A DNA stretch of 64,000 nucleotides from NCBI RefSeq assembly GCF_000026545.1, contig NC_011601.1. One strand, written 5' to 3'. A model generated the notes under the pieces. That model was given only the letters and a program-made list of their open reading frames with translations. It was not told the origin of the DNA and did not search any database. Shown piece by piece: positions 22,087 to 24,051 of the stretch. Position 1 is the first letter of the stretch, and every line of letters starts with the position of its first letter. The DNA is from Escherichia coli O127:H6 str. E2348/69. GTDB taxonomy: Bacteria; Pseudomonadota; Gammaproteobacteria; Enterobacterales; Enterobacteriaceae. Both the position numbers and the translations under genes were made by a program.

Positions 22087-24051
22087 TCAGGCGGCGGTGT
22101 TCGCCATACGTTGTTCGCGGTTTATCGCCTGCAAGGCGGAGACATCAACAATCAGTGCCACGCTGCCGTCGCCAAGAATGGTCGCAGCAGAAATGCCGGG
22201 GACTTTGCGATAGTTACTTTCAAGGTTTTTAACCACAATCTGGTGTTGACCAATTAATTGATCCACCAGCAAGGCGTAGCGGCGACCGCCACTTTGTAAG
22301 ATCACCACAATTCCCTGGGTGGCTTCGGTTTTCGCGCCCGCGACGTTGAACACTTTCCACAGTTCGACGATGGGCAGATATTCACCCCGCACTTCCAGCA
22401 CCCGCTCGCCGCCAGCCAGTGGATGCAGATCGGCTTCACGGGGTTGCAGTGATTCCATGACAGCATTCAGCGGCAGAATGAAAACTTCATCCGCAACGCG
22501 TACGGACATGCCGTCAAGAATTGCCAGCGTCAGCGGCAGTAAAATGCGGATCGTAGTGCCAGTACCCTGCTTCGACTGGATCTCGACATGACCGCCCATC
22601 TCCTGGATATTACGTTTAACGACGTCCATGCCGACGCCACGCCCGGAGACGTCGGTGACCTGCTCCGCCGTGGAGAAGCCAGGTGCAAATATCAGCATTG
22701 CAACTTCGTCGTCGCTCATGTTTTCGCTGACGGTCAGACCTTGCGAGGCCGCTTTTGCCAGAATTCGTTCACGGTTTAGCCCCGCCCCATCGTCGGTCAC
22801 TTCAATGCAAATGTTGCCGCCCTGATGTTCGGCAGACAGAATTAAATTTCCGACGCTGTTTTTACCTGCAGCGAGCCGTTTTTCTGGCAGTTCAATACCG
22901 TGATCGAGGCTATTGCGTACCAGGTGGGTCAGCGGGTCGATAATGCGTTCAATCAGGCTCTTGTCGAGTTCAGTAGAACTGCCCACCAGCGTCAGTTCTA
23001 CCTGCTTGCCGAGTTTTCCCGCCAGATCACGCACCAGCCGGGGATAGCGACTAAAGACATATTCCATCGGCATCATGCGAATCGACATCACTGATTCCTG
23101 CAAATCACGAGCGTTACGTTGTAACTGCCCCATGCTGGTAATCAAATCACCATGATTAACCGGGTCCAGTTCACTGGAGCGCTGAGCAAGCATGGACTGG
23201 GTGATGACCAGCTCGCCGACGAGGTTAATTAATTGATCAACCTTTTCTACCGCTACACGGATGCTGGTGGATTCACTGCTGCGCGTCGTTTTTTCCCGCT
23301 CCACGCGACCGGTTGGCGCTTGTTCGGCTGCCAGTTTAAGCACTGGTGGGGTGGATATTTTTGGCGAGACGTCTACTGTTTCAAAGGTAATCTGATCGGC
23401 TTCAATCACAAAACAGAGTACCGCTGTGATGTCATCTTCGGCGATGTCGCCCGGTAATATTGCCGAGAGAGAATCCGCCCCTTTCACCACGTCAGTTAAC
23501 GTTGTCAGATGCCCCAACTCTTCTTCCAGCAGGTCGACTTCGCCGGCCTTCAGGCGCGAAAGGATAATTCGTCGCGGTGACTGACTACGACTCTGCTCAT
23601 CTTGCGGTTCACTTTTGGCAACCACACTTAATCGGGTCACTGCAGATGGCGTTTCGCCTTTCGCTTCTAATGCCAGTTGACGCAAGGCCTGGCAGATATA
23701 ATCGAAGCTGGCGGCATCCGGCTCTTGCGACTGTTTATAAGCGTCGAGCTGTTCTTGCATGATGTCCTTCGTTTCCAAAAACAGATTGATAATGTCGGTG
23801 TTGAGTTGCATCTCACCTCGTCTGGCTTCATCGAGCAGGTTTTCCATCAGATGCGTGGTTTCCTGCAAAACGCTGAAACCAAAGGTTCCTGCCCCTCCTT
23901 TGATCGAGTGGGCAGCCCGAAAGATGGCATTCAACTGTTCGGCATCTGGCGCTTCCGGCTGCAAAACCAGCAGATGCTGCTCCATATCAGCCAACAGTTC
24001 GTCCGCTTCATCAAAAAATGTCTGATAAAAATCGCTTATATCCATGCTCAC
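22087..24051 (-). CDS. cheA: chemotaxis histidine kinase CheA (long form; CheA-S initiates internally)
   Basis: 654 aa from GTG at 24051 ([20 protein letters not shown]); phosphorylatable His in [14 protein letters not shown]. Confidence 0.9.

Follow-up and report, generated by a model that had tools for sequence, protein, structure and literature searches.

The cheA gene of Escherichia coli O127:H6 E2348/69 carries the same two in-frame translational starts as K-12 cheA

The cheA gene in a 64,000-nucleotide stretch of contig NC_011601.1 from Escherichia coli O127:H6 str. E2348/69 (the window) is almost certainly a standard E. coli cheA, in which a single mRNA would be read into two proteins in the same frame, one initiated at GTG 24051 and the other at ATG 23760. 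By analogy with work on K-12, both the long form (CheA-L) and the short form (CheA-S) would be expected to be produced in E2348/69. The dual start of cheA is an already known textbook feature, and the allele described here is unremarkable.

The long form and its GTG start

The gene lies on the minus strand, and translation of the frame gives 654 codons plus a stop from GTG (24051-24049) to TGA (22089-22087), in agreement with the GTG start that the original prediction had assigned to the long form. The features of the long form are as follows.

22087-24051, minus strand: coding sequence of CheA-L (654 amino acids plus stop), from translation, RefSeq, and Pfam
24049-24051, minus strand: GTG initiation codon of CheA-L, the RefSeq start in both the K-12 and the E2348/69 records
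24059-24062, minus strand: Shine-Dalgarno GAGG of the long-form start, 7 nt before GTG and abutting the motB stop TGA
23908-23910, minus strand: CAC codon of His48, found in CheA-L only and inside the Pfam Hpt match

The P1-P5 architecture of CheA is complete, with five Pfam families scoring above their gathering cut-offs in the expected order (Hpt, residues 8-100; CheY-binding, 161-223; H-kinase_dim, 261-324; HATPase_c, 372-508; CheW, 514-640). His48, the phospho-acceptor and autophosphorylation site, is placed in the motif AAHSIKGG as in K-12. The gene is that of WP_012578929.1 in E2348/69, with 100% nucleotide identity that also holds across the 15,965-nt locus including the tap remnant, and the E2348/69 RefSeq record contains the long form only.

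The motB-cheA junction runs in the order GAGG (24062-24059), the motB stop TGA (24058-24056), CAGC, and GTG, and the arrangement GAGG-N7-GTG is the same as in K-12. The calculated duplex energy of this GAGG with the 3′ end of 16S rRNA is -7.2 kcal/mol. Because the Shine-Dalgarno sequence abuts the stop codon of motB, some translational coupling of the long-form start to motB is likely.

The placement of the start was compared across 80 cheA loci from species-representative genomes, which range from Citrobacter to Xenorhabdus with 62-96% protein identity and do not include Salmonella. The sequence GTG-AGY-ATG is invariant in 75 loci, its second codon varying only synonymously (AGC/AGT), and the upstream GAGGTGA is kept in nearly all of these GTG-bearing loci, four nucleotides from GTG. 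The 4-6 bases directly before GTG vary freely (GATAGC, GACACC, GATCCC, GACCAC, and others), and this free variation before GTG together with synonymous-only change after it places the coding boundary at GTG. The mechanical open reading frame, which begins at TTG 24105 inside motB (24056-24982), was rejected as the cheA start, since free variation of the bases before GTG between species means that the extension is not coding.

A second placement has CheA-L truly starting at the ATG of codon 3 (24045-24043), with GTG belonging to a mere upstream leader. This ATG is invariant in 81/81 sequences, and the six Photorhabdus and Xenorhabdus loci (L078-L083, positions 1501-1509) have GTA in place of GTG, so translation of CheA-L in these genera has to begin either at the ATG two codons on or elsewhere. 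Against a codon 3 start in E. coli are the coding boundary seen in the 75 loci, the spacing of GAGG (7 nt to GTG and 13 nt to the codon 3 ATG), and the use of GTG by both RefSeq records and by the standard numbering of His48 and Met98. A start at codon 3 is accordingly considered unlikely, and GTG 24051 is retained as the start of CheA-L.

The internal start at codon 98

The in-frame internal methionine that the original prediction invoked for CheA-S, giving no position, is codon 98, which is positioned in frame, 3′ of His48 and 5′ of P2. Its features are listed below.

23758-23760, minus strand: ATG of codon 98, the internal start, equivalent to position 1975033, where the short CDS of K-12 starts
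23765-23769, minus strand: Shine-Dalgarno AAGGA of the internal start, with a 4-nt spacer to ATG and a predicted energy of -5.4 kcal/mol, identical in K-12
22087-23760, minus strand: coding sequence of CheA-S (557 amino acids plus stop, 1674 nt), in the frame and with the stop of CheA-L and equal in length to K-12 NP_416402.2

The CheA-S product is without His48 and most of P1 and retains P2-P5 together with the exposed tail of P1 (residues 98 to ~139), which in K-12 binds the phosphatase CheZ and brings it to the receptor cluster. As cheA contains 18 in-frame ATGs in total, an internal methionine is by itself uninformative, and the context of codon 98 carries more weight. The original prediction had proposed inspection of the ribosome-binding site upstream of the internal start; the sequence just 5′ of the codon 98 ATG is GAAACGAAGGACATC, in which AAGGA is present at the spacing given above. 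The predicted Shine-Dalgarno pairing of codon 98 with the 16S 3′ end is the third best among the in-frame ATGs, and unfolding the mRNA between -25 and +15 is predicted to cost 11.7 kcal/mol, near the lowest of the 10.7-22.5 kcal/mol range over the same ATGs. The internal start is set in a U/A-rich and weakly structured stretch. No conserved RNA structure is supported around it (RNAalifold, -1.6 kcal/mol), and the E. coli fold is less stable than its shuffles (z = +1.0). This weak predicted folding fits an open initiation region.

In PMC2644175, E. coli CheA is described as the product of two alternative start codons, with CheA-S corresponding to CheA(98-655), and CheA-S is absent in an M98I mutant of K-12 CheA. 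A literature search for genome-wide initiation-profiling evidence on cheA gave nothing specific.

CheA-S is described as lacking the phosphorylation site and as binding CheZ through its N terminus, which aids CheZ localization (PMC11005335; PMC3676780). On the CheA-S side of this interaction residues 98-226, including Cys120, are identical to K-12, and CheZ itself is intact with 214/214 residues identical to K-12. Docking of CheZ by CheA-S in E2348/69 would thus be expected from the K-12 work.

Synonymous-site constraint upstream of codon 98

Conservation at the internal start was measured per codon as the observed minus the expected synonymous-codon identity among sequences sharing the residue, a statistic to be read with the descent relationships of the sequences in mind. 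Codon 98 is ATG in 81/81 aligned sequences, a count biased toward loci that keep Met98, because one of the six peptide patterns by which the loci were gathered, ETKDIMQE, contains this residue; loci with EAKDIMQQ entered the sample through the other patterns. The window of codons 89-97 ranks 1/493, with an excess codon identity of 0.356 compared with a gene mean of 0.089 (sd 0.064), and the sole region with comparable constraint is codons 1-9 at the long-form start. When the sample was reduced to 69 non-redundant sequences (<88% nucleotide identity), codons 88-99 still held the highest-ranking windows, and the gene-wide maximum of the 9-codon window is reached by 0/2000 shuffles. The region of interest is the following.

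23761-23790, minus strand: codons 88-97, the strongest synonymous-site constraint in cheA, directly 5′ of the internal start

The location and strength of the signal suggest that codons 88-97 form a translation-initiation region embedded in the coding sequence. The footprint of synonymous constraint left by the internal start equals in strength the one that marks the real beginning of cheA.

The peptide around Met98 is nearly invariant. Conservation of Met98 at the protein level could be structural, and it is the synonymous-site signal that speaks for a function at the level of the RNA. An extreme form of the structural reading is that the Met98 region is kept only for the P1 fold and that functional CheA-S is neither made nor needed in E2348/69. 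The near-invariant peptide would agree with this, as would the behavior of K-12 mutants without CheA-S, which reportedly are still chemotactic. Protein constraint, however, cannot explain a suppression of synonymous variation that peaks exactly 5′ of ATG98, and the nucleotide context is identical to that of K-12, which makes CheA-S. Conservation for the P1 fold alone is therefore judged very improbable.

An equally small probability is given to a short (or extra) form that begins at Met81 (ATG 23811-23809) and not at Met98. Met81 has a GAGG 4 nt upstream with a stronger calculated duplex energy than that of codon 98 (-6.5 to -7.2 versus -5.4 kcal/mol), and ATG81 is present in 77/81 sequences. 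The comparative evidence is of the opposite sense, as the synonymous identity observed in codons 76-80 before Met81 is about that expected, the window of codons 80-88 ranks 246/493, the GAGG gives way to CGC GGC GAA in most genera, and four taxa have no ATG81. The calculated opening energy is also higher at Met81 (16.7 versus 11.7 at codon 98). In K-12, M98I by itself abolishes CheA-S (PMC2644175). Met81 is rejected as the internal start on these comparative and genetic grounds, and the M98I phenotype goes most of the way to refuting it.

AAGGA is found at the internal start in 4/80 Enterobacterales genes (the gene in the window, L024, L046, and L065), a count that does not include L004, a second E. 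coli locus that also has AAGGA; the other genes have AAAGA. The codon for K95 is AAG in 4/80 genes and AAA in 76, mostly followed by GAT, and E. coli has AAGGA because its K95 codon is AAG. The AAGGA Shine-Dalgarno is nearly Escherichia-specific, most genera having AAAGAT. Since it is not kept outside Escherichia, something other than the Shine-Dalgarno sequence may chiefly determine the internal start. The peak of constraint lies instead at codons 88-93, ATC AAC CTG TTT TTG GAA (23790-23773), 13-30 nt 5′ of AUG98, and the conserved nucleotide element is thus distinct from the E. coli Shine-Dalgarno.

A tentative proposal, which we regard as possible but rather less probable than its converse, is that the Enterobacterales-wide determinant of the internal start is this upstream block (AUC AAC CUG UUU UUG GAA in the mRNA) and not a Shine-Dalgarno sequence, AAGGA being an addition of the Escherichia lineage. 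Synonymous change is almost absent from this U-rich block, which is predicted to remain unfolded. Its role could be that of a standby site or a site for ribosomal protein S1, or a regulator of the ratio of CheA-L to CheA-S could act on it. If the upstream block is the determinant, Escherichia would have raised its CheA-S output by adding a true Shine-Dalgarno sequence.

Conservation within E. coli

Conservation within the species was measured as the share of complete E. coli genomes in which a 66-nt stretch is found with 100% identity.

66 nt around the internal start: 5366/5378 genomes identical (99.8%)
66 nt around the long-form start: 5315/5378 genomes identical
Control, 66 nt in P4: 4280/5380 genomes identical (79.6%)
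Control, 66 nt in the P1-P2 linker: 389/5357 genomes identical (7.3%)

The whole of cheA is found at an identity of at least 99% in only 767/5380 complete E. coli genomes.

Compared with K-12 MG1655, the cheA region has 42 nucleotide differences in 2125 nt, of which 38 are silent, and the protein is identical at 650/654 residues with the changes E227D, N259S, K484E, and V605I. The alignment to K-12 cheA that the original prediction had suggested gives identical contexts at both starts, with zero differences in the 61 nt around GTG and in the 61 nt around codon 98. The K-12 RefSeq entry for b1888 holds two CDSs, 1973360-1975324 (654 amino acids) and 1973360-1975033 (557 amino acids), and the start of the shorter one corresponds exactly to position 23760 of the window. 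The description of the dual start as canonical is thus borne out, the contexts being those from which RefSeq annotates both products in K-12.

The operon and its neighborhood

The genes motA, motB, cheA, and cheW ("mocha") follow one another in a single direction, their junctions being short or overlapping and their products full length. The elements surrounding cheA are as follows.

26036-26062, minus strand: sigma-28-type promoter match 5′ of motA and inside the 3′ end of flhC, TAAA-N15-GCCGATAT, with 1 mismatch to the consensus
24979-25866, minus strand: motA, 5′ of cheA in the same operon; motA-motB is complete, with 99.0% identity to K-12
24056-24982, minus strand: motB, directly 5′ of cheA in the same operon
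21563-22066, minus strand: cheW (167 amino acids, 100% identical to K-12), which closes the operon and follows the cheA stop by 20 nt
19488-19711, minus strand: tap remnant, residues 1-45 and 496-533, frameshifted (tblastn), a frameshifted partial pseudogene in RefSeq

The position of the match at 26036-26062 suggests that it is the promoter of the motA operon, in a window that has 20 sigma-28-type matches compared with 5.5 expected by chance. A further sigma-28-type match, with 0 mismatches, is located 5′ of tar (21450-21476).

The original prediction took the dual start as confirmation that the gene block is intact apart from tap. The block is intact in this sense, as tblastn with K-12 queries finds FlhD, FlhC, MotA, MotB, CheA, CheW, Tar, CheR, CheB, CheY, CheZ, FlhB, and FlhA at full length with 98.9-100% identity; the dual start in cheA does not itself confirm this, and the separate check with K-12 proteins was needed. 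The tap remnant is situated between tar (19757-21418) and cheR (18606-19466), and the deletion allele is contiguous in 1058/5426 complete E. coli genomes. Published work has described Tap loss in uropathogenic strains as well as in phylogroup B2 (PMC12623472; PMC3559539), and the remnant is the known B2 deletion.

Several other observations were made in the window. An Rfam match to the C0465 sRNA (21466-21543, plus strand; 111.6 bits with a gathering score of 40) lies between cheW and tar, in the orientation opposite to that of the chemotaxis genes, and overlaps the sigma-28-type match of tar. The flhD-uspC intergenic region (26925-27703) has no IS element, unlike K-12 MG1655, where IS1H is present 5′ of flhD; the regulatory region of flhDC is therefore uninterrupted here. 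In the E2348/69 RefSeq annotation an ISEc13 (IS4-like) transposase gene adjoins an araH pseudogene without its N terminus (~30505-32274), which points to a disrupted arabinose ABC transporter locus in E2348/69. A CheY-like receiver domain at 44558-44866 (minus strand), with 31% identity to CheY over 105 residues by tblastn, presumably belongs to an unrelated response regulator.

Discussion

The reading of the locus as a standard dual-start cheA implies the following course of expression. An mRNA spanning motA-motB-cheA-cheW would be transcribed, probably from the sigma-28-type promoter at 26036-26062. Ribosomes starting at GTG 24051 would synthesize CheA-L, the 654-residue histidine kinase with the full P1-P5 set of domains that autophosphorylates by way of His48. 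Independent initiation at ATG 23760, with AAGGA 4 nt upstream, would yield CheA-S of 557 residues. On the basis of the K-12 work, CheA-S would not be phosphorylatable and would join CheA dimers, the tail of P1 docking CheZ at the receptor array.

In this B2/EPEC-type genome the locus of the chemotaxis kinase is thus wild type, and the CheA-S isoform could be added by annotation pipelines. The nearly Escherichia-specific AAGGA and the GTA of Photorhabdus and Xenorhabdus leave this reading unchanged. With the clear footprint of its internal start, the gene also serves well as a positive control when hidden internal starts are sought.

The closest known system is cheA of K-12 (b1888; CheA-L/CheA-S), which is like the gene described here in its length, its frame, its GTG and ATG98 starts, and its place between motB and cheW. 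None of the four residues that differ from K-12 falls in P1 or in the CheZ-binding stretch. The cheA genes of other Enterobacterales (Citrobacter, Enterobacter, Erwinia, Pantoea, Serratia, Yersinia, and Photorhabdus, among others) share ATG98 and the constrained AAC CTG TTT TTG GAA upstream of it, whereas directly before ATG98 they mostly have AAA GAT compared with AAG GAC in E. coli; the P1-P2 and P2-P3 linkers also differ in length, and the proteins range from 648 to 756 amino acids. A more distant parallel is infB, which likewise gives two proteins in one frame (IF2 alpha and beta) by independent internal initiation (PMC11005335; PMC12350097). The proteins encoded by infB and cheA are unrelated, and the analogy is one of mechanism only.
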